Shown here: piece after piece, positions 3,145 through 60,443 of the stretch | How the letters are laid out: every line of letters starts with the position of its first letter | How positions within the stretch are numbered: the stretch's first letter is position 1 | Assembly (NCBI GenBank): GCA_964603505.1 | Contig: CAZRVT010000001.1 | Span: forward strand, 52,215-116,214 | Origin: an uncultured Holophagales bacterium | Lineage (GTDB): Bacteria > Acidobacteriota > Thermoanaerobaculia > UBA2201 | Length of the DNA: 64,000 bases | Reading direction: 5' to 3' | Notes under the pieces: model-generated | Databases searched by the model: none | What the model saw: only the letters and a program-made list of their open reading frames with translations | What the model was told of the DNA's origin: nothing | Translations under genes and position numbers: made by a program

Positions 3145-3439
3145 TTCTTCCATCTATCAATGATTCAAAGGCCTTTCAAGCCGTTGCCGGCCTTCCGGCC
3201 CACGGCATGGATGAGCGTCCATAGGCCATGGATGGGCCTCCCAGTGTACCCAAAGTGTACCCGTCCGTTTTTGCTATTTTGAGGACCAGTCTGGCTGAAA
3301 AAGGGACGAGCCCAAAAACTAAAAGATTTCCACCGATGGACGGAATTTCGGAATGTATTGAGCCATCCTCAATTTTTTCACGTCCTGATCTCAAAATCCG
3401 AGGGCAACACTGTGGGGATCATTTCCCAAAGGGGTTGTT

Positions 3440-4080: not shown

Positions 4081-4223
4081 CCAGTGTTGCACTTGAATCT
4101 TGAAAGCAGTGCGAAGCGACGATTATTGTTCGAGCAGGTTTTGGATGAGGTCATCCGCTCTCTTGATTTCAACCCGTGCCCCGGAATACAATGAAATTCG
4201 CCGTCATCCATAGAGGAGGACAC

Positions 4224-7247: not shown

Positions 7248-7329
7248 AATAGCCCGGCTTGCCGCGCCCGAAGAGTCATGGGCCGAACGCTTCCCTCGGC
7301 GGCACGGGGGTATCGGCCCTTTTGATATA

Positions 7330-44630: not shown

Positions 44631-44734
44631 TCAGCCCCCCTCCCCTTCCTCCGCCCGGCCGCAAAAAAGCCCCCCGTGCGGAGGGCAAAGCATAGCAGGG
44701 TGTTCAACCCTGGCGTCGGGCCAGGAGGCGTTCG

Positions 44735-45976: not shown

Positions 45977-46223
45977 CGGTCATGCCAGATTTTCCCAGAG
46001 AGGGGATGAGCATGGCGCGCGATGGCCTGTATGCCTGATAATATTGATAGTTGCCTAATCTACGCCAAGGCGGCAGACACGACGATCCCACCCCGATGGT
46101 GCATGTTTTCACCATGCAGGGCTTGACGGCGACGGGAAGCCGATTGTTCGATTAGAGCTTATGGACCAGGCACTTACGATGGTGCATGCAGCCCCGATGC
46201 ACCCCCGGCCCGATTCTATGCAT

Positions 46224-47630
46224 TTACTCCGGGCGGTGCCCCTTGAGGCCGTGCTTGCGCATCAGCGCCTGGAAGTTCTGCCGCTGCATCCCCACGTCCC
46301 GGGCGGCGTGGCTGACGTTCCAGCCGTTCCGCTCCAGGGCCTCGTGCACGAAGATCCGCTCGAGGTCGTCCACCACCTGCTCCCGCTGCTTGCGCTTCAT
46401 CTCCAGGAACTCCTCGTTGGTGCGGGGGACGACGAAGGCGCCGGGCTGGCCTTGCGTGTAGACGGTGGTGGGGAGGTGGCGGGGCTCGAGGACGCCGCCG
46501 TCGAGGGTGATGAGGGCCCCCTCGAGGACGTGCTCGAGCTGGCGGACGTTGCCCGGCCAGTCGTAGTTCTCGAGCGTCAGGAGGGTGGCCTCGGAAAGGG
46601 TGGGGACGGGGCGCCCCGCCCGACCGGCGAGCTTCCGTATGAAATGATAGGCCAGGAGGGGGATGTCCTCCCTGCGCTCGCGCAGCGGGGGGAGGAGGAT
46701 CGGGAACACATGGAGGCGGTAGTAGAGGTCCTCCCGGAAGGTCCCCTCGCCCACCATCTTCGCGAGGTCGCGGTTGGTGGCGAAGACGAGGCGGGTGTCC
46801 ACCTTTCGCACCTGGGTGTCCCCCAGCGGGAGGAACTCCCGCTCCTGGATGAAGCGCAGGAGCTTCCCTTGCACCTCCAGGTCCACGTTGCAGATCTCGT
46901 CGAGGAAAACGGTCCCCCGATCGGCCGCCTCCATGATCCCCCGCTTGTGGGCCACGGCCCCCGTGAAGGCTCCCTTGACGTGCCCGAAGAGATCGCTCTG
47001 GAGCAGCTCCGCCGACAGGGTGCCGCAGTCAACGGCGAAGAAGGGTTTCTCCCGCCGCGGGCTGAGGGCGTGGACCGCCCGGGCGACCAGCTCCTTGCCC
47101 GTGCCGCTCTCCCCCACGATGAGGACGGTGGAGGGGGTGGGGGCCACCTGGCGGATCATCCGGTACACCTCCTGCATCCGGTGCGACCGGCCCACGAGCC
47201 CCTGGAACTCGACGGCGGGGGTCCCCTCGGCCAGGGCCCGCTGGTCGAGGATGCGCCGGCGCCGCTCCCACGCCTTGTCGGCCACGGCCAGGAGCTCCTC
47301 GGCGGTGAACGGCTTGGGGAGGTAGTCGAAGGCCCCCACCTTCATCGTCTCCACCACGGAGGCGATGGTGGCGTAGCCGGTGATGACCACGGCGACGATG
47401 TCGGGGTGCCGGGTGCGCAGGGCGTCCAGCAGCTCCATTCCCCCCATCTCCACCATCTTCAGGTCGGTGAACACGAGGTCGAAGGGCTCCTGCTCCAGCA
47501 ACGCCAGCGCCTGCTTCCCGGAGAGGGCGGTGCGCACGGCGAAGCCCCCCCGGACGAGGACCTTTTCGCAGCTCTTGCCGATGGTCATCTCGTCGTCGAC
47601 GACGAGGACGCGGGGGACGTTCGCCTCCAT
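46224..47630 (-). CDS. Sigma54-dependent response regulator (NtrC family)
   Basis: REC (VLVVDDE..DLVFTDLKM), AAA+ sigma54 module (GESGTGKE, GAFTGA, ESELFG-like QSDLFG), C-terminal HTH. Start ATG at 47630 shares one nt with the HK stop. Confidence 0.9.
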   Translation of the reverse strand: MEANVPRVLVVDDEMTIGKSCEKVLVRGGFAVRTALSGKQALALLEQEPFDLVFTDLKMVEMGGMELLDALRTRHPDIVAVVITGYATIASVVETMKVGAFDYLPKPFTAEELLAVADKAWERRRRILDQRALAEGTPAVEFQGLVGRSHRMQEVYRMIRQVAPTPSTVLIVGESGTGKELVARAVHALSPRREKPFFAVDCGTLSAELLQSDLFGHVKGAFTGAVAHKRGIMEAADRGTVFLDEICNVDLEVQGKLLRFIQEREFLPLGDTQVRKVDTRLVFATNRDLAKMVGEGTFREDLYYRLHVFPILLPPLRERREDIPLLAYHFIRKLAGRAGRPVPTLSEATLLTLENYDWPGNVRQLEHVLEGALITLDGGVLEPRHLPTTVYTQGQPGAFVVPRTNEEFLEMKRKQREQVVDDLERIFVHEALERNGWNVSHAARDVGMQRQNFQALMRKHGLKGHRPE

Positions 47631-49609
47631 CAGACCGGCCCCTCGGGCAGGGACAGGGTGATGGTGGTGCCATGCCCCACGCGGCTTTCCACCCGGATCT
47701 CGCCCCCGTGCCGCTCCAGGATGCCGTAGGCGATGGCCAGTCCCAGCCCCGTCCCGGTGGCCTTGGTGGTGAAGAAGGGCTCGAAGAGCTTGTCCTTGAT
47801 GTCGTCGGGGATGCCGGGCCCGGTGTCGCGGAAGGCCACCTCGATCCGGCCGCGGGCGGGGTCCCGCCGGGAGCCGATGTGGAGCGCCCCCCCCTGGGCC
47901 ATGGCCTCGGAGGCGTTGAGGACGATGTTCAGGACCACCTGCCGCATCTGGTCCTGGTCGGTCATCAGGGTCGGGAGGGCGGGGTCCAGGGCGGTGGTGA
48001 TCGCGATGTTCCGAAACGAGGCCTGGTTCCGCACCAGGGCCAGGACGTCCTCCACCACCCGGTTGAGCGAGGTGGCCGTCTTCTGCGGCGGGGTCTGCCG
48101 GGCGAAGTCGAGAAGCCCCTTGACGATCTTGCGGCACCGGAGGGTCTCGTCGACGATGGTCTGGAGGTCGGGGCGCCGGGGGTCGTCGGCCGGGAGGTCC
48201 TCGAGCATCAGGGAGGCGTTGGTGAGGATGCCGGTGAGGGGGTTGTTGATCTCGTGGGCCACGCCGGCGGCCAGCTTGCCGACGGCGGCCAGCTTCTCGG
48301 TCTGGAAGAGCTGGGCTTGCATGGCTTTCAGCTCGGCGGTGCGCTGCTCCACCTTCTGCTCCAGGGTCTCGGTCCACCCCTTGAGGGCCTGGTGGGTGTC
48401 CTGCAGTTCGGCCACCATCCGGTTGAACGCGTGGGCCAGGTGGGCGATCTCGTCGGTCCCCCGCACCGGCACCCGCTGGGCGTAGTCCCCCGTCGCCACC
48501 TCGTCGGCGGCCCGCGCCATCGCGGCGACGGGCCGGGCGATCTTCTGGGCCACGCGCGTAGCGACGATGATCAGGAGGACCACCCCCAGGGCGGCGATCC
48601 CCAGGAAGAGCGCCAGGGAGCGATGGAGGCCGTCCCGGTAGGGCTTCTCCAGGAGCCCGACGTAGAGCATCCCCACGGTCCGGTCCTCGAGGTTCTTGAG
48701 GGGGGCGTACGCGGAGAGGTACCAGTCGTTGACGACGAAGGCGCGCCCCCGCCAGGTCTCCCCCCGATCCAGGACCGCCTCCGCCACCTCCGCCGAGACG
48801 CGGGTGGCGATGGCCCGGGCCCCGTCGGCCCCCTTGACGTTGGTGCTGACGCGGACGTCCCCCTGGAAGATGGTGACGGTGCCGGTCTCGCGCCCCCGGT
48901 AGAGGGCGTCCTTAAAGACCACGGTGCGCACCTTGTCCACAAGGGTGTAGTTGCGGTTGAGGAGGTTCCCCCCGACGAGGGCCCCCAGAAACCGCTTGGA
49001 GGGGGTGAAAACGGGGGCGCCCCCCTTGAGCATCAGCCCCGCCGTGAGGCGCTTCTGGTCCGTGGGCCGGGCATGGGGGGTGGGGGCCAGGTCCATGGCG
49101 GCCTGCATCGCCAGGGCCTCCGAGGCGCGCCGCAACTCCTCCTCGCCGATGACCTCGGTGCTGGCCACGGGGCTCCGGCGCGCCAGGACCTCCTGGACCG
49201 TGGGGTCGGCCCGGACGTCGTCGCCGGAAAGCTCCGGGTTGGCCGCCCGGAAGACCACCGTCCCCTGGGCGTCCACCAGGGTGAGCACGTCCAAGCCCTC
49301 CTCGGCCCGGATGCGCTCCAGCTCCGGCCCCAGGTCCGCCCGATCCCCCTCGGAGAGGGCCCGGTAGAGGACCATGCGCGTGGCGTGGATCCGCAGGGTG
49401 TCCTTGAGCCGGTCGAGGGCGTTGGCGTAAATCTCCTTGGCCGATTCCAGATCGGAGTTGATCTTGGACTGGGCCTGGCCGTAGACGTGCTTCTTGATGG
49501 TCTGCACCCCCACGATGGTGGTGATGAGGGCGGGGACCAGGATGGCGACCGCGAAGGAGAGGATGAGGCGGGCCCGGAGGCTGCTCCGGATGAGCGACTG
49601 GAGGGTCAC
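47630..49609 (-). CDS. Sensor histidine kinase (periplasmic Cache-like sensor, HAMP, HisKA, HATPase_c)
   Basis: Two TM segments flanking a ~300-aa sensor domain. H-box AAGVAHEINNPL, N-box LNIVLNASEA, DTGPGIP, GTGLGLAI. ATGA overlap with the upstream hydrogenase maturation protease gene. Confidence 0.85.
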   Translation of the reverse strand: MTLQSLIRSSLRARLILSFAVAILVPALITTIVGVQTIKKHVYGQAQSKINSDLESAKEIYANALDRLKDTLRIHATRMVLYRALSEGDRADLGPELERIRAEEGLDVLTLVDAQGTVVFRAANPELSGDDVRADPTVQEVLARRSPVASTEVIGEEELRRASEALAMQAAMDLAPTPHARPTDQKRLTAGLMLKGGAPVFTPSKRFLGALVGGNLLNRNYTLVDKVRTVVFKDALYRGRETGTVTIFQGDVRVSTNVKGADGARAIATRVSAEVAEAVLDRGETWRGRAFVVNDWYLSAYAPLKNLEDRTVGMLYVGLLEKPYRDGLHRSLALFLGIAALGVVLLIIVATRVAQKIARPVAAMARAADEVATGDYAQRVPVRGTDEIAHLAHAFNRMVAELQDTHQALKGWTETLEQKVEQRTAELKAMQAQLFQTEKLAAVGKLAAGVAHEINNPLTGILTNASLMLEDLPADDPRRPDLQTIVDETLRCRKIVKGLLDFARQTPPQKTATSLNRVVEDVLALVRNQASFRNIAITTALDPALPTLMTDQDQMRQVVLNIVLNASEAMAQGGALHIGSRRDPARGRIEVAFRDTGPGIPDDIKDKLFEPFFTTKATGTGLGLAIAYGILERHGGEIRVESRVGHGTTITLSLPEGPV

Positions 49610-50097
49610 TCGCCCATCCCGGGGGCCCCGAGCCAGCGGTCGACGACGCGCCGGCCGCGGTCCACGTACGCCGGCAGGGCCCGGGCCACCTTTTCCGTCA
49701 ACCCTTCCTCGATGAGGAAGGGGTCCTCCACCTCCATGGCCAGAATCACCAGCTCGTCCGGAATGGGCAGGCCCATCCGCCGCGCGATCTCCATGGCCAT
49801 GGGGAGGCCGATGTAGTGGGGGGAGGGGGACGGGACCGGGGCCAGCGACGCGATGCCGAACTCCTTGATGGTGCCCGGCTCCTCCCCCTGCTGGATGGCG
49901 TCGAGGACGAGGACCCGGCGGTAGGGCACGAGGTGGTCGAGCAGGCCGAGGCTGGACTCCGGGGCCTCCACGACGTCCACCCGGCCGCGATAGTGCGCGT
50001 CCAGGGCGCGGCCGGCGTAGAGGCCGAGGCCGTCGTCCTTCAACTGCTCGTTGCCGAGGGCGAGAACCAATATATCCTTGCGGTCGTCGGTCGTCAT
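49606..50097 (-). CDS. Hydrogenase maturation endopeptidase (HyaD/HybD/FrhD family)
   Basis: VLALGNEQLKDDGLG motif with conserved Asp and His ligands; 163 aa. Confidence 0.85.
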   Translation of the reverse strand: MTTDDRKDILVLALGNEQLKDDGLGLYAGRALDAHYRGRVDVVEAPESSLGLLDHLVPYRRVLVLDAIQQGEEPGTIKEFGIASLAPVPSPSPHYIGLPMAMEIARRMGLPIPDELVILAMEVEDPFLIEEGLTEKVARALPAYVDRGRRVVDRWLGAPGMGE

Positions 50098-50152
50098 GAA
50101 AAGACCGTCTTGGGTCTTCTTCGGCCTTCCGCCTGCGGCCTTTAGCCCGTGC

Positions 50153-51613
50153 CTACGTGTTGAACTCCCGCACCTTTTCCCCGCGGTGGTCGTAGATCCG
50201 AACCGAGAGCGGATAGTGCCCCGGCAGGGTGTGGGTGCCGCAGCCGTGGCAGGGGTCGTAGGCGCGGTAGGTCATCTCCACCATGTTGAGGATCCCGTCG
50301 TCCGCCTTGCCCCCCTTGATGAAGGCCTTGGCGGAGCGCTGAAGCCCCAGGTTCATGGCGGCGGAGTTGTGCTGGGTGGCCACGATGATGTTGGCCTTCT
50401 CGATGATGCCGTTGGGGTCGGTTGTGTAGTGGTGGATGAGCAGGCCGCGCGGCGCCTCCACGATGCCGACGCCCTCCTCGGGGGTCCGGGACGGGATGGC
50501 GCGCACCTTGGGGTCCAGGATCTCGGGGTCGTGGGCCAGCTCTTTGATATGCTCGGCCGCGTAGAGGGCTTCGATGAGGCGAGCCCAATGGTAGGCCAGG
50601 GTGAAGTGGACCGGCCTGCCGCCCAGCGTCGCGTACATCTTCTCGTATTCGGCCTGGGCCAGCGGGGTGGCCATGCCGTCGGAGGCGTTGAGCCGGGCGA
50701 GGGGGGCGGTGCGGTAGACGCCGCTCTCCTCGCCGTCCTTCCACCCCTGCCAGCCGACCTTCTTGAGGAACGGGAACTTGATGTAGCTCCAGGGTTCCAC
50801 GTGCTCCCCGATGTGCTCGGTGTACTCGGGGCTGCGGAACTTGTTGAACTCCTTCCCCGCGGGGGTGACCGTGCGGATCATCCCGTCGTAGAAGTTGACC
50901 TTGTTGGCCCCGTCCACCATGCCGATGTAGTAGGTCTTGTTGATGTAGGCGTCGCCGGTGATCAAACCGACGTAGTCCTTGTTCTTGAGGACGATGTCGT
51001 TGAAGGCCTGGAGGGAGAAGAGGGCGAAGTCCACGCCGGCGGCGGCGACCGCCTGCAGGTTGGCCAGGTCGTCCTTCTTGAAGGGCTTGGTCACGCCGCC
51101 GGGAAGTCCGAGGACGGGATGCACCGCCTTGCCTCCCATCCGGGTCATGATGTCGCGCAGTTCGCGGCGGATCTTGATCACCTTGCCGCCGATCTCCAGC
51201 CCCACCTTCCCCAGCACCCCGACGATGTTGCGCTCGGCCCGGGGGGCCGCGGGGCCCACGATGAAGTCGGGGCCGCCGAGGTAGTAGAAGTGGAGGGTGT
51301 GGTCCTCGAGCATGAAGATGGAGTAGAAGAGGTCGCGGAGCTTCTGGGCGGCCGGGGGCGGGTCCACCTTGAAGAGGGCGTCGAGCGCCTTGGTGGAGGC
51401 CATGTGGTGGGCCGTGGGGCAGACGCCGCAGATGCGCTGGGTGATGCGCGGCATCTCTTCGGCGGCCCGCCCGACGCAGAACTGCTCGAATCCCCGCAGC
51501 TCGGGGATCTGCAGGTAGGCGTTTGCCACGTCGCCCTTATCGTCGAGGAAGATCTCGATCTTGCCGTGGCCCTCGAGGCGGGTGATGGGGTCGATGGTGA
51601 TGCGCTTTTCCAT
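50153..51613 (-). CDS. mvhA: [NiFe]-hydrogenase large subunit, group 3 (MvhA-like)
   Basis: N-terminal RxEGHG, L1 CGVC, C-terminal DPCHGCGTH followed by a short extension (protease substrate). Confidence 0.9.
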   Translation of the reverse strand: MEKRITIDPITRLEGHGKIEIFLDDKGDVANAYLQIPELRGFEQFCVGRAAEEMPRITQRICGVCPTAHHMASTKALDALFKVDPPPAAQKLRDLFYSIFMLEDHTLHFYYLGGPDFIVGPAAPRAERNIVGVLGKVGLEIGGKVIKIRRELRDIMTRMGGKAVHPVLGLPGGVTKPFKKDDLANLQAVAAAGVDFALFSLQAFNDIVLKNKDYVGLITGDAYINKTYYIGMVDGANKVNFYDGMIRTVTPAGKEFNKFRSPEYTEHIGEHVEPWSYIKFPFLKKVGWQGWKDGEESGVYRTAPLARLNASDGMATPLAQAEYEKMYATLGGRPVHFTLAYHWARLIEALYAAEHIKELAHDPEILDPKVRAIPSRTPEEGVGIVEAPRGLLIHHYTTDPNGIIEKANIIVATQHNSAAMNLGLQRSAKAFIKGGKADDGILNMVEMTYRAYDPCHGCGTHTLPGHYPLSVRIYDHRGEKVREFNT

Positions 51614-51628
51614 GGGCGTTCTCCTCGG

Positions 51629-52588
51629 TCAGACCTTGCGCTTGAGGTACGATTTGGACATCGAGTAGCGGTAGAAGGTGCCGGCGGGATCGGGGATGGA
51701 CTCGACGAGCTTGGCGATGGCCTCGTCCTCCTTGGCGTCGAACAGGGAGGCGAGGGCCGAGACGAACTTGGCCCCCTGGTCCGTGACGCCGTCGATGGGA
51801 CCCATGCAGCCCCGGCAGGGGCTGTTGCCGTGGATGCAACGCTCGTCGCATCCGCCCCGGGTGACGGGGCCCATGCAGATGACCCCTTGGGCCAGGAAGC
51901 ACTTCTCCTCGTCCAGCTCGATCTCGTGGGGCCGGTAGAACTTGGTGATGGAGAGCTTCTCCGGCTTGGTCTTGTTCCGCTCGCAGGTGTCGCAATTGGT
52001 GCGGTTGGGGGCCAGCACCGCCCCCTTGGGGGGGAGCTTGCCCTCCAGCAGGGCCTGGACGGCCGCCATGAAGAGGGCCGGCGGGACGGTGCAGCCGGGC
52101 AGGTAGTAGTCCACGTCGATGACCTGGTCGAGGGCGTACACCTGCTCCCACAGTTTCGGAAGGGTGAGCGTCCCCTCGGCGACCTTCGTCTCCTCCTGGG
52201 GGTACACCTTCGCGGGGTTGACGGAAGAGACGGTGTCCACGTAGGCGGTCTTCATGATCTCGGCCTTGGTGGTGAAGTTGGCCAGGGCCGGGATGCCGCC
52301 CAGGTGGGCGCAGGAGCCGAACGCCACCACGACCTGCGACTTCCTCCGGAGGAGGTGGACCATCTCCTCCTGCTCGGAGGAGCGGATGGCCCCGTTGATG
52401 AACGCCACGGTGATGGCCCCGTCGGCCATCGCCTCCAGGTCCTCCCGCTTGAAGTCCATGGCGCAAGGCCAGAAGACGATGTCCACGGCCGCGACGACCT
52501 TGAGGACCTCCTCGGCCAGGTCCACGACGGTCTCCTCGCACCCCCCGCAGGAGGCGCACCAGTAAAAGGCGACCTTCGGCTTAGCCAT
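51629..52588 (-). CDS. mvhG: [NiFe]-hydrogenase small subunit, group 3c (MvhG-like)
   Basis: CASCGGCEE proximal-cluster motif, further Cys clusters (CDTCERN, CMGPVTRGGCDERC, CRGCMGP). Confidence 0.85.
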   Translation of the reverse strand: MAKPKVAFYWCASCGGCEETVVDLAEEVLKVVAAVDIVFWPCAMDFKREDLEAMADGAITVAFINGAIRSSEQEEMVHLLRRKSQVVVAFGSCAHLGGIPALANFTTKAEIMKTAYVDTVSSVNPAKVYPQEETKVAEGTLTLPKLWEQVYALDQVIDVDYYLPGCTVPPALFMAAVQALLEGKLPPKGAVLAPNRTNCDTCERNKTKPEKLSITKFYRPHEIELDEEKCFLAQGVICMGPVTRGGCDERCIHGNSPCRGCMGPIDGVTDQGAKFVSALASLFDAKEDEAIAKLVESIPDPAGTFYRYSMSKSYLKRKV

Positions 52589-53030
52589 GCACGACCTCCT
52601 TCCGGACCTTCGAGGGCCCGAGGGCGCGGATCTGCTCGGTGAACTCGTTGACGACGTGCTGGAACTTGTCCCCCTCGGCCGCCGAGATCCACTCGAGGCG
52701 GAACCGCTCGGGCTCGATGCCGAACTGGGGGAGCATCCTCTTCAGGAGGTGGTAGCGCCGCAGGGCCTTGAAGTTCCCCTCCTGGTAGTGGCAGTCGGAG
52801 GGGGTGTGGCAGCCGGCCACCAGGACGGCGTCGGCCCCCTCGGCGAAGGCCTTCATGACGAACTGGCTGTCCACCCGCCCGGAGCACATGACGCGGATGG
52901 GCCGCACGTTGGGCAGGTATTTCATGCGGGCGGTCCCGGCCAGATCGGCGCCGGTGTACGAGCACCAGTTGCACAGGAACGCCACGATGCGGGGCTCGAA
53001 CGCATGGGCTTGGGATGTCGCGCTCATCAC
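52581..53030 (-). CDS. mvhD: MvhD/FlpD-type hydrogenase iron-sulfur subunit
   Basis: RIVAFLCNWCSY..VMCSGRVD..VLVAGCH MvhD signature; 149 aa. Confidence 0.85.
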   Translation of the reverse strand: MMSATSQAHAFEPRIVAFLCNWCSYTGADLAGTARMKYLPNVRPIRVMCSGRVDSQFVMKAFAEGADAVLVAGCHTPSDCHYQEGNFKALRRYHLLKRMLPQFGIEPERFRLEWISAAEGDKFQHVVNEFTEQIRALGPSKVRKEVVHG

Positions 53031-53039
53031 ATATCCCTC

Positions 53040-54791
53040 CTATACCGCCAGGATCCCTTCGATCTCGGCGAAGATCTGCTCGTCGCGGAAGTGCTTCTGG
53101 AAGGCCGCGGCCGAGGGGCAGGCGGCCACGCAGGTGCCGCACCCCTTGCAGAGGGCCTCGTTGATGACCGAGCGGTTCTTCTCCTTGTCGTAGGCGATCG
53201 CCGTGTAGGGACAGAGGCCGACGCAGATCTGGCAGCCGGAACAGAGCTCCTCGACGATCTCGGCCGTCACCGCCTCGGTCTCCACCTCGCCGCGCTGGAT
53301 CAGGGAGAGCGCCGCCGAGGCGGCCGCGCCGGCCTGGGCCACCGTGTCCGGGATGTCCTTGGGGCCCTGGCAGGCGCCGGCGATGAAGATGCCGTCGGCC
53401 GCCGTGGAGACGGGAGCCAGCTTGGGGTGCTTCTCGGTGAAGAAGCCGTCCTTGCCCGTGCTGCAGGTGAAGAGGTGGGAGAGTTCCCGCGCCTCGGGCT
53501 TGGCCTCGATGGCGAGGCAGAGGACCACCAGGTCCACGGGGATGCGGCGGACGACGCCGATCATCGTGTCCTCCGCCCGCATGACGAGGCGCCCCTCTTC
53601 CGAGGGGTCCAGGGCGGCGTCGTTGATCTCCGCCACCTTCCCCCGGACGAAGTTGACCCCCTCCTTCAGCAGGCGGTTGTAGAACTCTTCGTACCCCTTC
53701 CCGAAGCACCGCATGTCGATATAGAAGTTGTAGACCTCGCAGTCGTGGATCTTCTCCTTGATCAGATGGGCGAACTTCAGGGCGTACATGCAGCAGACGC
53801 GGGAGCAGTATTCGTGGTATTTCTGGTCGCGGCTCCCCACGCAGTGGACGATCCCGATGCTCTTGGGAACCTTTCCGTCGGCGGTCAGGATCTTGCCCCC
53901 CGTGGGGCCGCCGGCGTTGTTGAGGACCTCGAAATCGAGGCTGGTCATCACGTTCTTGTACTTGCCGTACCCGTATTCCTTCAGCCCGCGGGGGTCCTGC
54001 AGCTGGAACCCGGTGGTGAGGAGGATGGAGCCCACCTCCACCTCCTCCACCCGATCCTGCTGGGCGTGGTCGATGGCCCGGGCCTCGCAGACGTCGACGC
54101 ACACTTGGCACTTGCCCGTCTTGAAGTGGATGCAGGAGTCCCGGTCGATGACGGCCTTGCGGGGGACCGCCTGCATGAAGTCGATGTGGATGGAGGTCAG
54201 GGGCCCCATCGGCATGGCGGCGTAGATCCCCTCCTGGTCGTCCTTGATCTTGATGGCGCCGGTGGGGCAGACGGAGGCGCAGGCGCCGCAGGCGATGCAC
54301 TGCTCGCTGGTGCGGTCGTAGGCGGTGGAGACGGTGCGGTGCGGACCCCGGTCGAAGAAGCCGAGGACGTGGGCCCCCACCACGTCGCTGCAGACCTTGA
54401 CGCAAAGACCGCAGAGGATGCAGTCGTCGTCGCCGCGTCCGAAGCGGCCGGTGGCGCCGTACTCCTCCGCCAGCGCGTTGATCACGGGAACGTTGCCGCA
54501 CCGGGCGAGCATCCACTCCAGGATCATCCGGCGGCTGCGGAGGACCCGCTCGGATCGGGTGAACACCTCGATCCCGTTGCTGACGGGGTAGTTGCAGGCG
54601 GTCACCATCCGGACGCGGTTCCGCAAGTGCACCTCCACGGTGCAGATGCGGCAGACGCCGTAGGCCTCCACCAGCGGGTGGTGGCACAGCGTGGGGATTT
54701 TGACGCCCGCCTTCTCCGCCGCCTGGAGCAGGGGCGTCCGGTCCGCGACCTCAAGCTCGATGCCGTCGATCTTGATCTTGGCCATGTTCAT
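53040..54791 (-). CDS. hdrA: Fusion protein: NuoG/HndD-N-terminal-like Fe-S domain (2Fe-2S + 4Fe-4S clusters) joined to the C-terminal ~two-thirds of heterodisulfide reductase subunit A
   Basis: N-terminal: 2Fe-2S (CHHPLVEAYGVCRIC), CILCGLCVKVC, CIACGACASVCP, C..C..C...C. C-terminal: SILLTTGFQ..YGYGKY..SLDFE..GGPTGGKI..IVHCVGSRD..YCSRVCCMY, GIFIAGACQGPKDIPDTV and C-terminal ferredoxin CSGCQICVGLCPY../CKGCGTCVAACP, colinear with HdrA residues ~300-650. Confidence 0.75.
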   Translation of the reverse strand: MNMAKIKIDGIELEVADRTPLLQAAEKAGVKIPTLCHHPLVEAYGVCRICTVEVHLRNRVRMVTACNYPVSNGIEVFTRSERVLRSRRMILEWMLARCGNVPVINALAEEYGATGRFGRGDDDCILCGLCVKVCSDVVGAHVLGFFDRGPHRTVSTAYDRTSEQCIACGACASVCPTGAIKIKDDQEGIYAAMPMGPLTSIHIDFMQAVPRKAVIDRDSCIHFKTGKCQVCVDVCEARAIDHAQQDRVEEVEVGSILLTTGFQLQDPRGLKEYGYGKYKNVMTSLDFEVLNNAGGPTGGKILTADGKVPKSIGIVHCVGSRDQKYHEYCSRVCCMYALKFAHLIKEKIHDCEVYNFYIDMRCFGKGYEEFYNRLLKEGVNFVRGKVAEINDAALDPSEEGRLVMRAEDTMIGVVRRIPVDLVVLCLAIEAKPEARELSHLFTCSTGKDGFFTEKHPKLAPVSTAADGIFIAGACQGPKDIPDTVAQAGAAASAALSLIQRGEVETEAVTAEIVEELCSGCQICVGLCPYTAIAYDKEKNRSVINEALCKGCGTCVAACPSAAAFQKHFRDEQIFAEIEGILAV

Positions 54792-54809
54792 CGTCGTCCT
54801 CCTCCCGCC

Positions 54810-56708
54810 TTAGACCCGCCGGATGGCGTCGCGCTTGCACACTTCGATGCAGGCGCCGCACTTGATGCACTTGTGGATGTCGATGGAGTGGACCCGCTTC
54901 ACGTCGCCGTAGATAGCCGCCGCGGAGCAGGGCCGGACGCAGGCGTGGCAGCCGTCGCACTTGGCGGGGTCGATGGAGTAGGTGATGAGCTCTTTGCACA
55001 CCCCGCCGGGGCACTTGCGGTCCTTGATATGGGCTTCGTACTCGTGCTTGAAGTACTGCCGGGTGGAAAGGACCGGGTTCGGGGCCGAGGTGCCGAGGGC
55101 GCAGAGGCAGCAGTCCTGCATCACCGCCCCCATCTCGTCCAGGAGCGCCAGGTCGTCCATCGTCCCCTTCCCCTCGCTGATGCGGGTGAGGGTGTCGAGC
55201 ATCGTCTTGAGCCCCTCGCGGCAGGGGGTGCACTTGCCGCACGACTCCTCGGTGAGGAACGCGATGAAGTAGCGGGCCACGTCCACCATGCAGGTCTGCT
55301 CGTCCATGACGATCATCCCGCCGGAGCCCATCATGGAGCCGGCCTCGGTGAGGGAGTCAAAGTCCACCGGCATGTCGAGCTTGTCCTCGGGGAGGCATCC
55401 CCCCGAGGGGCCGCCGGTCTGGACGGCCTTGAACTTCTTCCCCCCGGGAATGCCGCCCCCGATGTCGAAGATGATCTCCCGCAGGGTGATCCCCATGGGG
55501 ACCTCGATGAGGCCGGTGTTGTTGATCTTGCCCACCAGGGAGAACACCTTGGTGCCGGAGGATCCGTTCCAGGGGTTCTCCTTCACGTCGCCGGTCCCCA
55601 TGGAGGCGAACCACTCGGCGCCCCGCTGGATGATGACGGGAACGTTGGCGTAGGTCTCCACGTTGTTGAGATTGCTGGGACGGTCCTGGTAGCCGTGCTC
55701 CACCGTGTGGATGTACTTGGCCCGCGGCTCCCCGACCTTCCCCTCGAGGGAGGCCATGAGCGCGGTGCTCTCGCCGCAGACGAAGGCGCCCGCCCCCTCG
55801 CGGATCTCGATGTCGAAGTCCATTCCGGTCCCCAGGATGTTCTTCCCGAGCAGGCCGAGTTCCCGCGCCTGGTCGAGGGCGCGCTGCAGGCGCTGGCGCG
55901 CCAGGGGATACTCGTGGCGGATGTAGACGAACCCCTCCCGGGCTCCGATGGCGCGGGCGGCGATGACCATCCCCTCGATGACCGAGTGGGGGTCGCTCTC
56001 GATGATGGAGCGGTCCATGAAGGCCCCGGGGTCGCCCTCGTCGGCGTTGCAGATGATGACGGGCTCGCGGGCGGGGAGCCGCGACGACGAGGCCCCCCGG
56101 TCCGCCCCCCTCGGGTCCATGGTCATCCGCTGGCCGGAGGTGTCGGCGGCGTGCAGAGCCGCCTTCCGGCAGGTCTCCCACTTGATTCCGGTCGGGAACC
56201 CCCCGCCGCCCCGCCCCCGGAGCCCGCTCTTCTTGATCTCGAGAATGATGCCCTCGGGGGTCATCTGGGTGAGGGCCTTCGCCAGGGCCTGATAGCCGTC
56301 CACGGCGATGTAGTCCTCGATGCGGTCGGGATCGATGAGCCCGCGGTTGCGCAGGACGACGAGCTTCTGCTTGGCGAAGAAGGGGATGTCCTTGAGGGCG
56401 GGAATGGGGTCTTTCTCTGTCGGCGGGGTGTAGAGGAGCTTCTTGACCGGGCGCCCTTTGAGGAGGTGCTCCTCCACGATCTGCGGCACCTCCCGCTCGC
56501 CCACGCGGCAGTAGAAGACGCCGTCGGGCTGGACGATCATGATGGGGCCCTCGGCGCAGAAGCCCTGGCAGCCGGTGGTGATCACCTGGACCTCGGCGGC
56601 CAGGTTGCGCTTCGCGATCTCCGCCTCGAGGGTCTTCCTCAGGTTGAAGGAGCCCCCGGCGACGCAGCCGGTGCCGGTGCAGATGAGGCAATGGGTGCGG
56701 TAGGCCAT
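54810..56708 (-). CDS. NuoF/HoxF/HndC-like NAD(P)H-binding flavoprotein subunit with N-terminal thioredoxin-like 2Fe-2S domain and C-terminal 2x[4Fe-4S]
   Basis: GRGGGGFPTG (FMN/NADH), ESCGKCTPCREG (N3 cluster), C-terminal CDGCHAC..C and CIKCGACIEVC. Confidence 0.9.
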   Translation of the reverse strand: MAYRTHCLICTGTGCVAGGSFNLRKTLEAEIAKRNLAAEVQVITTGCQGFCAEGPIMIVQPDGVFYCRVGEREVPQIVEEHLLKGRPVKKLLYTPPTEKDPIPALKDIPFFAKQKLVVLRNRGLIDPDRIEDYIAVDGYQALAKALTQMTPEGIILEIKKSGLRGRGGGGFPTGIKWETCRKAALHAADTSGQRMTMDPRGADRGASSSRLPAREPVIICNADEGDPGAFMDRSIIESDPHSVIEGMVIAARAIGAREGFVYIRHEYPLARQRLQRALDQARELGLLGKNILGTGMDFDIEIREGAGAFVCGESTALMASLEGKVGEPRAKYIHTVEHGYQDRPSNLNNVETYANVPVIIQRGAEWFASMGTGDVKENPWNGSSGTKVFSLVGKINNTGLIEVPMGITLREIIFDIGGGIPGGKKFKAVQTGGPSGGCLPEDKLDMPVDFDSLTEAGSMMGSGGMIVMDEQTCMVDVARYFIAFLTEESCGKCTPCREGLKTMLDTLTRISEGKGTMDDLALLDEMGAVMQDCCLCALGTSAPNPVLSTRQYFKHEYEAHIKDRKCPGGVCKELITYSIDPAKCDGCHACVRPCSAAAIYGDVKRVHSIDIHKCIKCGACIEVCKRDAIRRV

Positions 56709-56724
56709 CGTGCGCTCCCTTCCC

Positions 56725-57108
56725 TTAGCTCGCGGTCTCGCAGCCGGCGGCGAGGGCGTACTCCTTCACCACCGCGCCGCCCACGACGTGCTCGGCCAGG
56801 ACGCGCTGGGCCTTGGCCGGGTTGAGGTCCACGTATTTGACGGGGGGCCGGCCGGCGATCTCCACGGTGGCCATCGGCTCCCGGCTGCACAGCCCCGCGC
56901 ACGAGGAGGTGGCGATCAGGACGTCGGCGAGTTTTCTGGCCTCCACCTCCTTCAGAAACGCGTCCAGCACCTCCCGCGCCCCCGCGGCGATGCCGCAGGT
57001 GCTCATGTGCACCGTCACGCGGACCCGGGCCTCGCCGGCCCGCAGGACCATCCGGTGGCGGGCCTCTTCCTTGATCTTCTTCAGGTCGTCGATGGTGATC
57101 CGGGGCAT
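56725..57108 (-). CDS. Thioredoxin-like [2Fe-2S] ferredoxin (HndB-like)
   Basis: 127 aa with C..C pattern (STCGIAAG..SSCAGLC) typical of the small Fd subunit of NADH-dependent bifurcating enzymes. Confidence 0.65.
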   Translation of the reverse strand: MPRITIDDLKKIKEEARHRMVLRAGEARVRVTVHMSTCGIAAGAREVLDAFLKEVEARKLADVLIATSSCAGLCSREPMATVEIAGRPPVKYVDLNPAKAQRVLAEHVVGGAVVKEYALAAGCETAS

Positions 57109-57109
57109 C

Positions 57110-57580
57110 TCACGCCTCCTTGGGCCGGTACTTCTTCAGGATGCGGGGCACGTCGGCCTGCTTCAGCTTGCCGTGCACGTCCTTCCCGACGGTTACGGCC
57201 GGCGCGAGACCGCAGCAGCCGAGGCAGTTGACGGTGTTGACGGAGAACATCAGATCGTCGGTGGTCTGGCCCCGGAGCACGCCGAGCTCCCGCTCGAACG
57301 CCTCGAGCAGGCGCGGGGCCCCCTTCACGTGGCAGGCGGTCCCCATGCAGACGTGGATGGGGTACCGCCCCACCGGCTTGAGGCTGAAGGCCCGGAAGAA
57401 GGTGGCGATCCCGAGGACGCTGGGGAGCGGGACGTCCAGCTGCTCGGCGACCCGCTGGAGGACCGGCTCGGGGAGATGGGTGAACTCCTCCTGGCACTCC
57501 AGAAGCATCCCGATCAGGTGCTCCTTCTTCCGTCCGTGGCGTTGGATGATGGCGTCGGCTTTGGCGATGTCGATGGACAT
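57110..57580 (-). CDS. NuoE/HoxE-like [2Fe-2S] subunit
   Basis: CMGTACHVKG..CLGCCGLAP NuoE cluster motif; 156 aa. Confidence 0.85.
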   Translation of the reverse strand: MSIDIAKADAIIQRHGRKKEHLIGMLLECQEEFTHLPEPVLQRVAEQLDVPLPSVLGIATFFRAFSLKPVGRYPIHVCMGTACHVKGAPRLLEAFERELGVLRGQTTDDLMFSVNTVNCLGCCGLAPAVTVGKDVHGKLKQADVPRILKKYRPKEA

Positions 57581-57590
57581 GGCGGTCTCC

Positions 57591-58502
57591 CTAGTTCATC
57601 TTCTCGCCGGCGGGAGCGAGGGCGGCTGGCCGGGCCTCGGGGGCCGACTGGCCGCGGTTGTCCCCGATGACGAGCTGGCCCTTGACGATGGTGCGCGCCG
57701 CGGGGATGCGGCGGCCGGGGCACTTCTCCCAGCAGACGCCGCACCCGGTGCACTTGTCGGTGTCCACGTAGCGCGCCTTGCGCTGGATCTTGACCTTGAA
57801 GTTCCCCACGAACCCGCTCACCTCCTTGATCTCGGCAAGGGTCAGGAGGTCGATGTTCTTGTTCTGCGCCACGGAGACCGTCTTGGGCGTCAGGATGCAG
57901 GCGGCGCAGTCGAGGGTGGGAAAGGTCTTGTCGAACCGCGACATGTGGCCGCCGATGTAGGACTTCTGCTCCACGAGGGTGACCTTGTTGCCGGCGTGGG
58001 CGATATCGAGAGCGGCGTGGATACCCGCGATGCCGGCCCCGACCACGAGGACGCGGGGGTTGACCGGCACCGTCTTGGCCTCCAGCGGCTGGTGGTGCGC
58101 CACGCGGTGGATGGCCGCCAGCAGGAGCGCCTTGGCCTTGCCGGTGGCGTCGTCCGGGTCCTCCGTGACCCACGAGCAGTGCTCGCGGATGTTGGCCATC
58201 TGGAAAAAGTAAGGGTTGATCCCCCCCTCCTCCGCGGCCCGGCGGAAAGTGAGCTCGTGCATCAGCGGGGAGCACGAGGCGACGACGATGCGGTTGAGGT
58301 GGTGGTCCTGGATGTCCTTTTTAATCAGCTCCTGCCCGGGGTCCGAGCACATGTACTTGTACTCGCGGGCCACCGCCACGTGCGGGCCGTGGTCGCGGGC
58401 GAACCGCATCACCTCGTCCACCCGCACCTTTCCGGCGATGTTGGATCCGCAGTGGCAGACATAGACGCCGATGCGGAGGGTGCCGTTCGTTCCGTTCGTC
58501 AT
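57591..58502 (-). CDS. hdrA: Heterodisulfide reductase subunit A, N-terminal part only (Cys4 cluster + FAD fold + first ferredoxin Cys motif)
   Basis: IGVYVCHCGSNIAG..VASCSP (HdrA N-terminal cluster), VLVVGAGIAGIHAALD (FAD), KCTGCGVCWEKCP. Ends ~40 aa later, where canonical HdrA would continue. Start ATG at 58502 after the junk N-terminus of the track ORF. Confidence 0.7.
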   Translation of the reverse strand: MTNGTNGTLRIGVYVCHCGSNIAGKVRVDEVMRFARDHGPHVAVAREYKYMCSDPGQELIKKDIQDHHLNRIVVASCSPLMHELTFRRAAEEGGINPYFFQMANIREHCSWVTEDPDDATGKAKALLLAAIHRVAHHQPLEAKTVPVNPRVLVVGAGIAGIHAALDIAHAGNKVTLVEQKSYIGGHMSRFDKTFPTLDCAACILTPKTVSVAQNKNIDLLTLAEIKEVSGFVGNFKVKIQRKARYVDTDKCTGCGVCWEKCPGRRIPAARTIVKGQLVIGDNRGQSAPEARPAALAPAGEKMN

Positions 58503-58513
58503 GGAAGGCCTCC

Positions 58514-59407
58514 TTACGACGCCGCGACCAGCCGCGCGGGCGGCGGGGTCATCAGGTCCGCAAACCCCAGCTGCTTCGGCTCCACCCCCAGGGCGTAGCC
58601 GAGGATCTGCGTGAAGTGGAGGATGGGGAGGGGCCGCAGCGTCCGGCCCCGCGCCTGGTCGAACCCGGCGTCGAACCGGGCGATGACCTTGGCCTGGTAG
58701 GCGTCCAGGTTGAAGTGGCAGAGGGGGCAGGCGGTGGCGACGGCGTTGGCGCCGCGCTTCTCCATCTCGCTGAGGAGCATGTAGACCAGCCGCTGGCCCA
58801 CGTCTTCCACGGTCCCCGTGAGCGACCCGCCGCAGCAGCGCGTCTTGTACGGGTAGGGCACGGGCTCGGCGCCGGCCGCCGCCATCAGGCGGTCCATCCG
58901 CTGGGGGTCGTAGGGATCGTCCATGTCCGCGTAGGGGCGGACGAGCTGGCATCCGTAGTACGAGGCCACCTTCCATCCCTTCAGGGGTCGCTTCACCGCC
59001 GCGGCGACGGCCTTCACCCCCTCGTCGGTGGCGAGCAGCTCCAGGGGGTGCTGGACCTTGACCTTGCCCCCGTAGTGCAGGTCTACCCGGTCCATGGCCT
59101 TGTTGATGGGGTCGCCCGGGTGGCCCTGAAGGTACTCGTTGGCCTTCCGGAGCGTGAGGTAGCACCCCGCGCACGGGGCCACCAGTTCGTCGACCTTCTG
59201 CCGCTCGGCCAAGGCGAGATTGCGGCCCGAGACGGCCATGGCCATGTCCTTGTCCACGCCAAAGTAAGCCGTGGCGCCGCAGCAGTTCCAGTCGTCCAGC
59301 TCCTTGAGCTCCATCCCGAGGGCCTTGAAGACGCCCAGCAGCGACCGCTCGTAGGCCTTGGAGGTGGAGCGGACGGAGCACCCGGGGTAATAGCCGTAGG
59401 TCTTCAT
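58514..59407 (-). CDS. hdrB: Heterodisulfide reductase subunit B
   Basis: Two CCG domains (CCG..C..C, YYGCQ..; CCGGS..CPLCHFN). RBS AAGGAGAAGG. Confidence 0.85.
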   Translation of the reverse strand: MKTYGYYPGCSVRSTSKAYERSLLGVFKALGMELKELDDWNCCGATAYFGVDKDMAMAVSGRNLALAERQKVDELVAPCAGCYLTLRKANEYLQGHPGDPINKAMDRVDLHYGGKVKVQHPLELLATDEGVKAVAAAVKRPLKGWKVASYYGCQLVRPYADMDDPYDPQRMDRLMAAAGAEPVPYPYKTRCCGGSLTGTVEDVGQRLVYMLLSEMEKRGANAVATACPLCHFNLDAYQAKVIARFDAGFDQARGRTLRPLPILHFTQILGYALGVEPKQLGFADLMTPPPARLVAAS

Positions 59408-59994
59408 TGCGCCTTCTCCTTGACCGCCTTCACCAGGTTCGCCAGCTGCGCCCGGTTTTTAATCTTGTCGCGGTGATAGAAGTCCTTGACGGCCATCCGG
59501 CCCCTGCGCAGGAGGGCCAGCCCCATCGGGGCCATCTTCATCAGCCCCGCAGGGTTCGTCTTAAGGAGCATCTCCATCACCACCGCCATCTCGGAGTTGC
59601 GGCCGTTCTTCGCGATGATGTCGGCCATCGCCTGCGCCAGCGCCGGGGCGGGGGCGTTCTTGGGGTAGATCCCCTCCTCGATGGCCATCCGCTTGAGGGA
59701 GTACATCACCTCGGTGATCTTGATCTGGGCGGGGCACATTACCGTGCAGGAATAGCACGAGGAGCAGAGCCAGATGGTGTGGCTCCGCAGGGCCTCGTCT
59801 TTGAACCCCGCCTTGACCATGGCCATCAATTTGCGGGGGGTGAAATCCATGTAAAGGGAGACGGGGCAGGTGGAGGAGCAGGTGCCGCATTGAATGCACT
59901 CGGAGATTTTGGAGCACCCGGAGTGTTGCGCCACCCGTTGCGCGAAACCCTTGTCCAACTCCGATTCGTATTTCACGGTCCGTACACTTTCCAT
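59404..59994 (-). CDS. hdrC: Heterodisulfide reductase subunit C
   Basis: CIQCGTCSSTCP and CSSCYSCTVMCP ferredoxin motifs. Start moved to the ATG at 59994, preceded by AAGGAGGG. Confidence 0.8.
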   Translation of the reverse strand: MESVRTVKYESELDKGFAQRVAQHSGCSKISECIQCGTCSSTCPVSLYMDFTPRKLMAMVKAGFKDEALRSHTIWLCSSCYSCTVMCPAQIKITEVMYSLKRMAIEEGIYPKNAPAPALAQAMADIIAKNGRNSEMAVVMEMLLKTNPAGLMKMAPMGLALLRRGRMAVKDFYHRDKIKNRAQLANLVKAVKEKAQ

Positions 59995-60066
59995 GGTCCC
60001 TCCTTTACCATTCGGTCTCGCAGAACTCTTTGACAATCAAAGCATGTGAAATGTGTCACTTGGGCG

Positions 60067-60112
60067 CAAGGCATTGTGAAGATTATCACATGTATATTAT
60101 CTCGTTAAGCCC
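60067..60112. promoter_or_regulatory. Two CRP/FNR/Rex-type palindromic operators (TGTGA-N6-TCAC[TA]) in the hdr operon leader
   Basis: tgtgaaatgtgtcact (60067-60082) and tgtgaagattatcaca (60097-60112). A further inverted repeat CTTTGA-CAA-TCAAAG sits at ~60049-60063. Confidence 0.4.
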
Positions 60113-60206
60113 ACCGGCCATGGCTTGAATACGCCTCCCCCGCGACTTTACGGCCTCAAGCGCAAACTCCCTTCCCCTTGTTGGAGGTGCATATCAAAAC
60201 GATTCA

Positions 60207-60222
60207 TGCAAGTTTCGCGCCA
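60207..60222 (-). promoter_or_regulatory. Predicted sigma54 (-24/-12) promoter for the hdr-nuo-mvh-HK-RR operon
   Basis: Minus-strand reading TGGCGCG-aaac-TTGCAtg versus consensus TGGCACG-N4-TTGCW. Located ~210 nt upstream of hdrC ATG. Two sigma54 activators are encoded in the window. Confidence 0.5.
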
Positions 60223-60443
60223 TGCATCGAAGGCCTCTTCAGGGGGTATGGTGTTGGGAAATGCGATTTTAGTGTTGTATTTTCCTACAATCGAGGCCGC
60301 CGCCAAACGGGATAGCCCCATTGCTCTACAACAGCAAGTTCCACGCGACCGCTTTCTTTTCGGTTCGGTCCCGTCACATGTTCTCGCACAATTTAGTACA
60401 ATAGGGTGTCCATGACTCCCGTGCTCGAAACAAGGGGCGTCTC

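Follow-up and report, generated by a model that had tools for sequence, protein, structure and literature searches.

We analysed a 64,000-nt stretch of DNA from an uncultured Holophagales bacterium of the phylum Acidobacteriota (assembly GCA_964603505.1, contig CAZRVT010000001.1, positions 52,215–116,214; hereafter the window) with regard to the control of an operon of about 15 kb on its minus strand. The operon comprises hdrCB, a split hdrA with nuoE, a ferredoxin gene and nuoF between its halves, mvhDGA, a maturation protease, a histidine kinase (HK) and a response regulator (RR) (Table 1). A first reading of the same DNA (the original prediction) had proposed a single sigma-54 promoter, Rex/CRP-like boxes in its leader and an autoregulated, H2-responsive operon. 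We found that the region at 60.0–60.3 kb most likely represents tandem promoters upstream of hdrC, one of sigma-54 type (P1) and one of sigma-70 type (P2), and that a further sigma-54-type promoter (P3) precedes the gene for a 2xREC protein. The presence of P2 under the boxes, and of P3 with its enhancer-type sites, had been missed in the original prediction.

Gene identities were taken from Pfam and NCBIfam profiles, and gene coordinates from the listing of open reading frames (ORFs) in the window. Presence and conservation of motifs, synteny and domain content were observed by comparison with related loci. L001 (UBA2201) was found in a genome scan with the NuoG-HdrA fusion protein, as was L003, an Acidobacteriota metagenome-assembled genome with the same operon, HK and RR; the closest genome was Holophagales bacterium UBA2201, with 88% amino-acid identity in the fusion protein. 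HdrC homologues and their contigs gave L013, L106, L108, L109, L112 and L102–L105, and RR homologues gave L099, L100, L101 and L111. L102 and L111 belong to one lineage, that of UBA2201 and L001, and the contig of L112 stops before the 3' end of the operon, where the presence of HK-RR cannot be read. A metagenome scan with an HdrC alignment yielded at least 80 further hdrC loci, mostly 45–57% relatives among the matches listed, which served only as a negative and enrichment set.

Table 1. Control elements and genes of the hdr-mvh locus, in window positions.
Feature	Position	Strand	Remarks
Conserved upstream element TGTAGGAAAATACAACA (TGT-N11-ACA)	60273..60290	minus	includes TTGTA-N6-TACAA palindrome
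Degenerate TGCAT-N9-ATGCA-type site TGAAGAGGCCTTCGATGCA	60223..60241	minus	2 mismatches; abuts -24 of P1
P1, sigma-54-type -24/-12 element TGGCGCGAAACTTGCA	60222..60207	minus	predicted start near 60196
Degenerate TGCAT-N9-ATGCA-type site TGAATCGTTTTGATATGCA	60188..60206	minus	1 mismatch; after -12, over predicted start of P1
P2, sigma-70-type promoter	60080..60108	minus	-35 TTAACG 60108..60103, 17-nt spacer, -10 TAATCT 60085..60080
Putative operator O1 ATGTGATAATCTTCACAA	60074..60091	minus	overlaps P2 -10 region
Putative operator O2 AAGTGACACATTTCACAT	60044..60061	minus	30 bp downstream of O1
hdrC	59404-59994	minus	ATG at 59994; Pfam, NCBIfam
hdrB	58514-59407	minus	
HdrA N-terminal part	57591-58502	minus	303 aa
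nuoE-like	57110-57580	minus	
Small 2Fe-2S ferredoxin-like	56725-57108	minus	
nuoF-like	54810-56708	minus	
NuoG N-terminus fused to C-terminal two thirds of HdrA	53040-54791	minus	
mvhD	52581-53030	minus	
mvhG	51629-52588	minus	
mvhA	50153-51613	minus	
Maturation protease	49606-50097	minus	
Histidine kinase (HK)	47630-49609	minus	
Sigma-54-dependent response regulator (RR)	46224-47630	minus	
Two exact TGCAT-N9-ATGCA palindromes	46100-46118, 46183-46201		spaced by 83 bp; near -150 and -230 relative to P3 start
P3, sigma-54-type promoter TGGCATGACCGATGCA	45987..45972	minus	55 nt upstream of 2xREC ATG; predicted start near 45960
2xREC protein	44735-45916	minus	393 aa
Intrinsic terminator	44686..44669	minus	GC-rich hairpin then TTTTTT; terminator scan

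Probable tandem promoters upstream of hdrC

The -24/-12 element of the original prediction was confirmed as P1. It is intergenic, lies on the same strand as hdrC, 213 nt 5' of its ATG, and has GG at -24 and GC at -12 with the 10-nt spacing that a sigma-54 promoter demands. Among all sites of the window it was the single 11/12 match to TGGCACG-N4-TTGCW and the best overall. Only two matches to TGGCRY-N5-TTGCW occurred, against 0.14 expected, and only P1 was both intergenic and correctly oriented; the count of bare GG-N10-GC was uninformative (1485 found, 1538 expected). Counterparts were found in L112 (TGGCGCAAGGATTGCA) and L001 (TGGCTTGACGCTTGCA), and in the three-way alignment TGGC and TTGCA were invariant while the bases between them differed (GCGAAAC, GCAAGGA, TTGACGC), which is the pattern expected of a working -24/-12 element. 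When about 75 hdrC upstream regions were screened at 10/12 or better, the window and L001 were the only positives, joined by L112 when it was added later. Within the closest (Holophagales-type) relatives P1 was found only in these three lineages, in which hdrC is linked to moeA. An HK-RR pair could be seen after the operon in the window and in the L001 lineage, both with P1; in the latter the portion of HK available from L102 showed 89% identity, and the RR fell into the same 90% cluster. L013 had neither a P1-like element nor a kinase within 260 nt past the protease. Weaker -24/-12 candidates were present in two of three more distant Acidobacteriota HK-RR loci (TGGCAGGGTACGTGCT, 10/12, in L101 and TGGCCGGTTAAGTGCA, 9/12, in L003). 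Besides, L106 showed a 9/12 element (CGGCAGCATCCTTGCA) downstream of two TGCAT-N9-ATGCA sites, an element which was missing from the related L109.

Upstream of P1, the TGT-N11-ACA element was centred at about -85 from the P1 start and had counterparts in L112 (TGTTTGAAAATGCAACA) and L001 (TGTTGCAAAAAGCAACA); a block TGTnnnAAAAnnCAACA followed by TCGCAT was kept in all three lineages. The TTGTA-N6-TACAA palindrome noticed earlier does exist within it (TTGTAGGAAAATACAA, 60290..60275), but survived in the relatives only as the shifted TGT-N11-ACA. We regard this element as a candidate site for an enhancer or for DNA bending, which the divergent moeA promoter possibly shares; an IHF- or ModE-like site was considered for the block and gave no convincing match by eye. 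Two other P1-like sequences were set aside: a GCG(C/T)G(A/G)AACTTGC repeat (60346..60334) had the wrong GG-GC spacing for a promoter, and a second -24/-12-like block (GGGAAGGGAGTTTGCG, 60176..60161) reached only 8/12 and was displaced by an indel in L001. With regard to distant loci, near-identical 9/12 elements TGGAATATTATTTGC(A/T) were observed upstream of hdrC in the AT-rich L054 (-116) and L067 (-77), and a different sigma-54 activator (35% identical) directly followed the protease in L079. It may be that hdr-mvh operons came under sigma-54 control on more than one occasion.

P2 lies between P1 and hdrC, with GATAAT (60087..60082) as an alternative -10. Its counterparts read TTGACG-17-TGATCT in L112, TTGACG-17-TAAGCT in L001 and TTGACA-17-TAGCAT in L108. 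L013 has TTGACG-17-TAGACT with TGTGATAGACTTCACA over the -10 region as its only recognisable control element. Across these five lineages, the window included, the -35 stood at a constant distance from the first of the two TGTGA-N6-TCACA boxes, with unrelated spacers. For L106 and L109 the promoter (TTGACA-18-TAGACT or TAAACT) was found about 20 nt further upstream, with a perfect box just past the -10.

The cores of box 1 (TGTGATAATCTTCACA, 60090..60075, exact) and box 2 (AGTGACACATTTCACA, 60060..60045, one mismatch) were the sole matches to TGTGA-N6-TCACA at up to one mismatch in the 64 kb. In their extended forms O1 and O2, they agree with 12 and 10, respectively, of the 14 specified positions of the generalized Rex operator TTGTGAANNNNTTCACAA (Ravcheev et al. 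2012, as quoted in PMC5317091). The GTG...CACAA positions of O1 were invariant in seven related upstream regions. O2 had counterparts in L112 (TAGTGATGTATTTCACAT) and L001 (AAGTGATGCTTTTCACAT), L108 carried two perfect TTGTGA-N6-TCACAA 18-mers (TTGTGATAGCATTCACAA and TTGTGATTCCATTCACAA), and L109 also had a perfect site. In hdrC upstream DNA generally, 20 boxes at up to one mismatch were counted in 38.5 kb (15 of 91 regions), where 0.65 were expected from the remaining parts of the loci and 0.93 according to shuffled sequence, an approximately 20-fold enrichment. Assignment of the boxes, which are conserved, to the Rex/CRP class was upheld, but their placement in a plain leader was not. Because they cover or directly follow the -10 of a conserved sigma-70-type promoter, they are most likely promoter operators of repressor type and not leader elements. 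The original prediction had itself named a sigma-70 start elsewhere as evidence that would speak against it; at the level of sequence, such a start is in part provided by P2 at box 1.

The P1 leader held little else. The CTTTGA-N3-TCAAAG repeat noted earlier is present (CTTTGACAATCAAAG, 60028–60042) but is not conserved in L112 and L001, one of which has an HdrC at least 90% identical, and is probably without function. A leader RNA element was rejected: the 205-nt P1 leader gave no stronger fold than its shuffled versions (z = -0.18), and a permissive Rfam scan of the control region returned only a meaningless miRNA match (E = 1.5). A conserved hairpin-like repeat, AAATGCC-CTGTTTGCA-GGC(A/G)TTT, was seen about 25 nt upstream of the hdrC -35 in L106 (about 2620–2660) and L109 (about 395–435); the window lacks this repeat.

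Tandem sigma-70 and sigma-54 promoters are familiar from the enteric glnAp1/glnAp2, where NtrC has high- and low-affinity ('governor') sites. The likeness extends to degenerate activator-type sites near the sigma-54 core. However, the order is reversed here, with sigma-54 upstream and sigma-70 downstream, the function is unrelated, and the sigma-70 promoter would be repressed by a separate Rex-like protein and not by the sigma-54 activator.

The kinase-regulator pair and the 2xREC gene

At the protease/HK junction the overlap of the original prediction stood, though as GTGA and not ATGA, the GTG start of HK overlapping the stop codon of the protease. The predicted HK/RR overlap was found as TGATG, in which the RR ATG and the HK stop codon share 1 nt; the RR starts at 47630, and the listed 717-aa ORF (46224–48377) is an over-extension. 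The first convincing minus-strand terminator downstream of the hdrC promoter region is that after the 2xREC gene. On the strength of the overlapping codons and of the lack of a minus-strand terminator up to that point, HK and RR very probably belong to the transcript of the operon, as had been suggested.

HK has the order transmembrane segment (TM), dCache, TM, HAMP, HisKA, HATPase, with an extracytoplasmic dCache domain of about 300 residues (approximately residues 36–334). RR has the order REC, AAA+ (Sigma54_activat, GAFTGA), HTH_8; it is the only protein with a GAFTGA motif, hence the sole recognisable sigma-54 activator, encoded in the window. Both proteins scored below the NCBIfam equivalog cut-offs (HK, for which AtoS and ZraS were nearest: AtoS 249 bits vs 646, ZraS 204 vs 479; RR: NtrC 381 bits vs 559, AtoC 376 vs 714), and the pair falls outside NtrBC, AtoSC and ZraSR, in a family without a name. 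RR had 2,705 relatives at E <= 1e-100, with 64–70% identity among the top matches listed. HK, RR and 2xREC were linked to hdrCB/split-hdrA/nuoEF operons in six loci of five lineages, either at the operon 3' end (window, L099, L111, L003) or divergently upstream of hdrC (L100, L101). L099 carries the Mvh version of the operon, with an RR 70% identical, and a pair at about 90% identity also follows a syntenic operon that ends in formate dehydrogenase (L102, L111).

A response to H2, the signal suggested at the outset, was not supported. H2 itself is unlikely to be the signal, since the orthologous kinase follows a formate dehydrogenase operon and the sensor is an extracytoplasmic dCache domain; besides, no regulatory hydrogenase was found in the cluster, whose sole hydrogenase is of MvhAGD type. 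In HoxJ/HoxA-HoxBC of Cupriavidus necator and HupT/HupR-HupUV of Rhodobacter capsulatus, H2 is sensed by a regulatory hydrogenase bound to a soluble PAS kinase. An NtrC-family RR with an HK at a [NiFe]-hydrogenase operon is common to these systems and ours, and in C. necator it acts through sigma-54. In contrast to them, the pair described here has a TM-dCache-TM-HAMP kinase and occurs with formate dehydrogenase as well. Membership in the HoxJ/HoxA H2-sensing family was therefore excluded, as there is no sensor hydrogenase (HoxBC/HupUV) and the kinase architecture is different, without a soluble PAS kinase.

In Proteobacteria, [NiFe]-hydrogenase genes are known to be controlled through sigma-54 (PMC12316311). 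A further parallel is DVU2394 of Desulfovibrio vulgaris, a sigma-54-dependent RR with an adjacent kinase that controls the adh-hdr/flx operon DVU2405-2397 (PMC3333781). The two systems share an NtrC-type regulator beside an hdr/NADH-dehydrogenase-like operon and dependence on sigma-54, which is predicted here. They differ in phylum and sensor, in the binding site (a direct repeat for DVU2394, palindromes here) and in the position of the regulator, which in D. vulgaris lies outside its target operon. The present locus has in addition a hydrogenase module, an extra sigma-70/Rex-like promoter and a 2xREC partner.

P3, upstream of the 2xREC gene, had equivalents in L111, L099, L101 and L100, all of the form TGGCAC/T-N5-(T/A)TGC(A/T). 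The two exact TGCAT-N9-ATGCA palindromes before it compare with an expectation of 0.61 for all matches at up to one mismatch in the window. They recurred with the same geometry in L111 and as comparable pairs in L099 and L100, and L101 had TGTAT-N9-ATACA twice, a symmetric change in both arms. L106 and L109 also carry TGCAT-N9-ATGCA ahead of hdrC, in two copies spaced by 32 bp, and in the hdrC upstream region of L108 the motif lies on the -35. These palindromes are the best candidate for the RR enhancer, which would make P3 the best-supported direct target of RR and, as a sigma-54 promoter, one better supported than P1.

The 2xREC gene, always found with the HK-RR pair, starts at ATG 45916 with the ribosome-binding site GAAGGAG, and the mechanical ORF start at 45976 is probably wrong. 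Its product probably modulates phosphotransfer as a sink or connector. With regard to its sequence, a linker with four conserved cysteines (C-x7-C-x9-C-x4-C) and a duplicated motif D(V/A)DMPF…E(V/L)…A(T/A) were both kept in five lineages; the protein may be a metal- or Fe-S-binding, redox-sensing connector.

A two-promoter model and its alternatives

The account towards which we lean, if only slightly, combines Rex-type repression at P2, a sigma-54 input at P1 and a separate promoter, P3, for 2xREC. The proteins assigned to the sites, the direction of regulation and the signals are inferred from the motifs and gene contents described above. P2 would be the ancestral promoter common to all close relatives, kept off by a dimeric Rex-type repressor bound to both O1, over the -10, and O2. 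Rex leaves DNA when NADH/NAD+ rises. Such release would fit the NuoEF-like NADH module, in that the enzyme would be made when reducing equivalents need disposal or exchange. About 120 bp upstream, P1 would be fired by phosphorylated RR or another sigma-54 activator upon an extracytoplasmic ligand sensed by HK; direct action of RR on P1 is plausible. Its transcripts would have to cross O1 and O2, and the two inputs would in this way be integrated. As HK and RR would share the transcript of the operon, read-through from P1 or P2 might render activation self-reinforcing, and RR bound at the enhancer sites of P3 would lead to synthesis of the 2xREC/Cys4 protein.

A wider proposal, which we advance only tentatively, is that the dCache HK, the sigma-54 RR and the 2xREC/Cys4 protein serve Hdr-NuoEF bifurcating complexes as a dedicated three-component module, so far uncharacterised and widespread in Acidobacteriota. 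It would accompany their core irrespective of the terminal enzyme ([NiFe]-hydrogenase, selenocysteine formate dehydrogenase or [FeFe]-hydrogenase-like unit), would use TGCAT-N9-ATGCA as a new enhancer, and in Holophagales would be layered on a Rex-type switch. A module of this kind would join an external chemical cue and the internal redox state in deciding the synthesis of the bifurcating complex.

Several observations weigh against the two-promoter model. The -10 hexamer of P2 is weak (as is that of L112), and a generic promoter scan did not flag P2 for this reason. Neither a rex nor a crp nor an rpoN gene was found in the window by tblastn, with Rex sequences among the queries, and an RpoN box search. 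Regarding P1, sigma-54 matches at 10/12 were no rarer in shuffled sequence than in the window (about five of at least 10/12 per shuffled window), and single-sequence statistics are weak in such GC-rich DNA. No perfect TGCAT-N9-ATGCA lies at enhancer distance upstream of P1, and the spacing of TGT-N11-ACA differs from that of the P3 sites; it is doubtful that one RR binds both. The degenerate copies which flank or overlap the P1 core would suit damping better than activation. One of them (60223..60241) has an equivalent with one mismatch in L112 (TGAATAGGCCTTCTATGCA), the other (60188..60206) is kept in L112, and both are absent in L001; the latter may bind RR with low affinity or may have arisen by chance.

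An alternative would be that P2 alone is functional for hdr-mvh, TGGC-N7-TTGCA being a conserved non-promoter (for example, a site shared with moeA), and that HK-RR controls 2xREC directly via P3, possibly together with unlinked genes, and Hdr indirectly or not at all. P2 and its operators occur in every close relative, vs P1 in three lineages, perfect RR-type enhancer sites are found at P3 and none at P1, chance 10/12 matches are common in this DNA, and L100, with a divergent HK-RR, has no detectable -24/-12 element upstream of hdrC. However, a working sigma-54 promoter would be expected to show what is seen in the three lineages, exact GG-N10-GC spacing and invariant TGGC/TTGCA around a free spacer, and P1 points toward hdrC. 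Wherever the operon 3' end is visible in close relatives, P1 is present with an in-operon HK-RR (window, L001 lineage) and absent without it (L013), and the persistent linkage of HK-RR to hdr in two arrangements argues for a functional tie. We regard the restriction to P2 as rather improbable, although it is the strongest of the alternatives.

The identity of the repressor is a separate question. Binding of the boxes by a CRP/FNR-family regulator (CRP-, HcpR- or CooA-like), with a response to cAMP, a gas or a redox-active ligand in place of NADH/NAD+, appears unlikely. TGTGA-N6-TCACA is also the textbook CRP consensus, the left half-sites read TGTGAT and not the Rex-typical TGTGAA, the distant locus L091 encodes a CRP homologue near hdr genes, and the window has no rex. 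It has no CRP homologue either, and sites over or just past the -10 imply repression, whereas an activator of CRP type requires sites with their centres near -41.5 or -61.5. The right half-sites read TTCACAA, full Rex-type sites (e.g. TGTGAAATATTTCACG and TGTGAATAAATTCACA) occur in distant hdrC upstream regions, and the target enzyme carries an NADH module. The tblastn searches with Rex queries also located rex in L011 and, directly upstream of hdrC, in L044. As to the latter locus, an unrelated metagenome contig, the rex homologue (9–440) ends within a few bases of hdrC (424–978) on the same strand, and its HdrC is 52% identical.

For the Rex-type assignment, control of a rex-linked operon for an NAD-dependent electron-bifurcating hydrogenase by Rex has been proposed in Caldithrix abyssi (PMC5317091). 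Rex regulons and the present locus share the operator class, its placement over or just past the -10 and an NADH-linked target that metabolises hydrogen or formate, and Rex-type boxes recur upstream of hdrC in many lineages, with an abutting rex in one. Unlike those regulons, this window with its putative operators has no rex, and the phylum Acidobacteriota lies outside the Rex studies that we found. The atypical left half-sites would be explained by their double role as the -10 region.

Least likely is the single-promoter model, in which sigma-54 drives everything, the boxes and CTTTGA repeat act in a long leader as roadblock or RNA structure, and H2 or redox is sensed: the -24/-12 element is real and conserved and the boxes lie downstream of it, but a conserved -35/-10 pair sits exactly at box 1, the promoter-plus-box unit is the only control region in L013, L108 and L109, all without a sigma-54 element, the leader showed neither unusual folding nor an Rfam match, its CTTTGA repeat is not conserved, and the periplasmic dCache sensor, the lack of a regulatory hydrogenase and the same kinase at a formate dehydrogenase operon speak against H2.

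Energy-metabolism regulation in Acidobacteriota is almost unstudied; in the literature that we searched on Hdr and hydrogenase genes of this phylum, the genes are described and regulators are not. Each single mechanism invoked here (sigma-54 with a two-component system, a Rex-like repressor, tandem promoters) is well known, and what is added is the layout of the tandem promoters and a conserved HK-RR-2xREC module with its enhancer motif. If true, the two-promoter model would offer three promoters for direct tests. The large family of Hdr-NuoEF complexes, whose probable role in anoxic soils and sediments is to keep NADH, ferredoxin and H2 or formate in balance, would gain a Rex-type operator and a defined enhancer motif. 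In practical terms, a 5' end should be expected near 60073 besides 60196, and H2 should not be assumed as the signal.

Operon composition and variants

The neighbouring moeA is divergent from hdrC and transcribed from 60444. A generic promoter scan found a candidate promoter for it (GTCACA-18-TACAAT, 60373–60402, plus strand), whose -10 region is kept in L001 (TATAAT) and L112. With regard to hdrC itself, public gene calls (JGI entries P0012 and P0246) are truncated, with 148 and 140 aa vs 196 aa here; the 196-aa form has a strong AGGAGG ribosome-binding site, and its alignment with all homologues begins at residue 1.

HdrA is split at about residue 260, positions 1–255 and 265–641 of the NCBIfam HdrA2 profile falling on two genes. 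The NuoE-like, 2Fe-2S and NuoF-like genes separate the two halves, of which the C-terminal one carries a fused N-terminus of NuoG type (2Fe-2S/4Fe-4S). The same arrangement was observed in L017, L083, L099, L102 and L108; in close relatives, L013 for example, HdrA is intact (661 aa) and NuoEF is missing. The split HdrA with NuoEF suggests an NADH-linked variant of the Hdr-Mvh bifurcating complex.

In the UBA2201 lineage (L102/L111), mvhG-mvhA-protease (window positions 49606–52588) is swapped for fdhB and fdhA. The fdhA gene has an in-frame TGA at the catalytic position (…HCARL*H…), a probable selenocysteine codon. Core Hdr/NuoEF proteins of this lineage were 79–91% identical to those of the window, and for MvhD, which lies at the junction of the swap, identity was as low as 55%. 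The moeA-moaA-moaC neighbours are unchanged across the exchange of hydrogenase and formate dehydrogenase. This molybdopterin-synthesis neighbourhood hints that the formate dehydrogenase version of the operon is the ancestral one. In another variant, the stretch from the hdrA N-terminal half to nuoE also encodes Fe_hyd_lg_C ([FeFe]-hydrogenase-like), DRTGG, PHP and HATPase_c proteins (L100 1453–5303, L101 1036–4825, L003 about 3341–7402), an insert which looks like a sensory-hydrogenase-type set inside the operon. A gap of about 3.8 kb between the same two genes was seen in many metagenome loci (L020, L021, L024, L026 and others).

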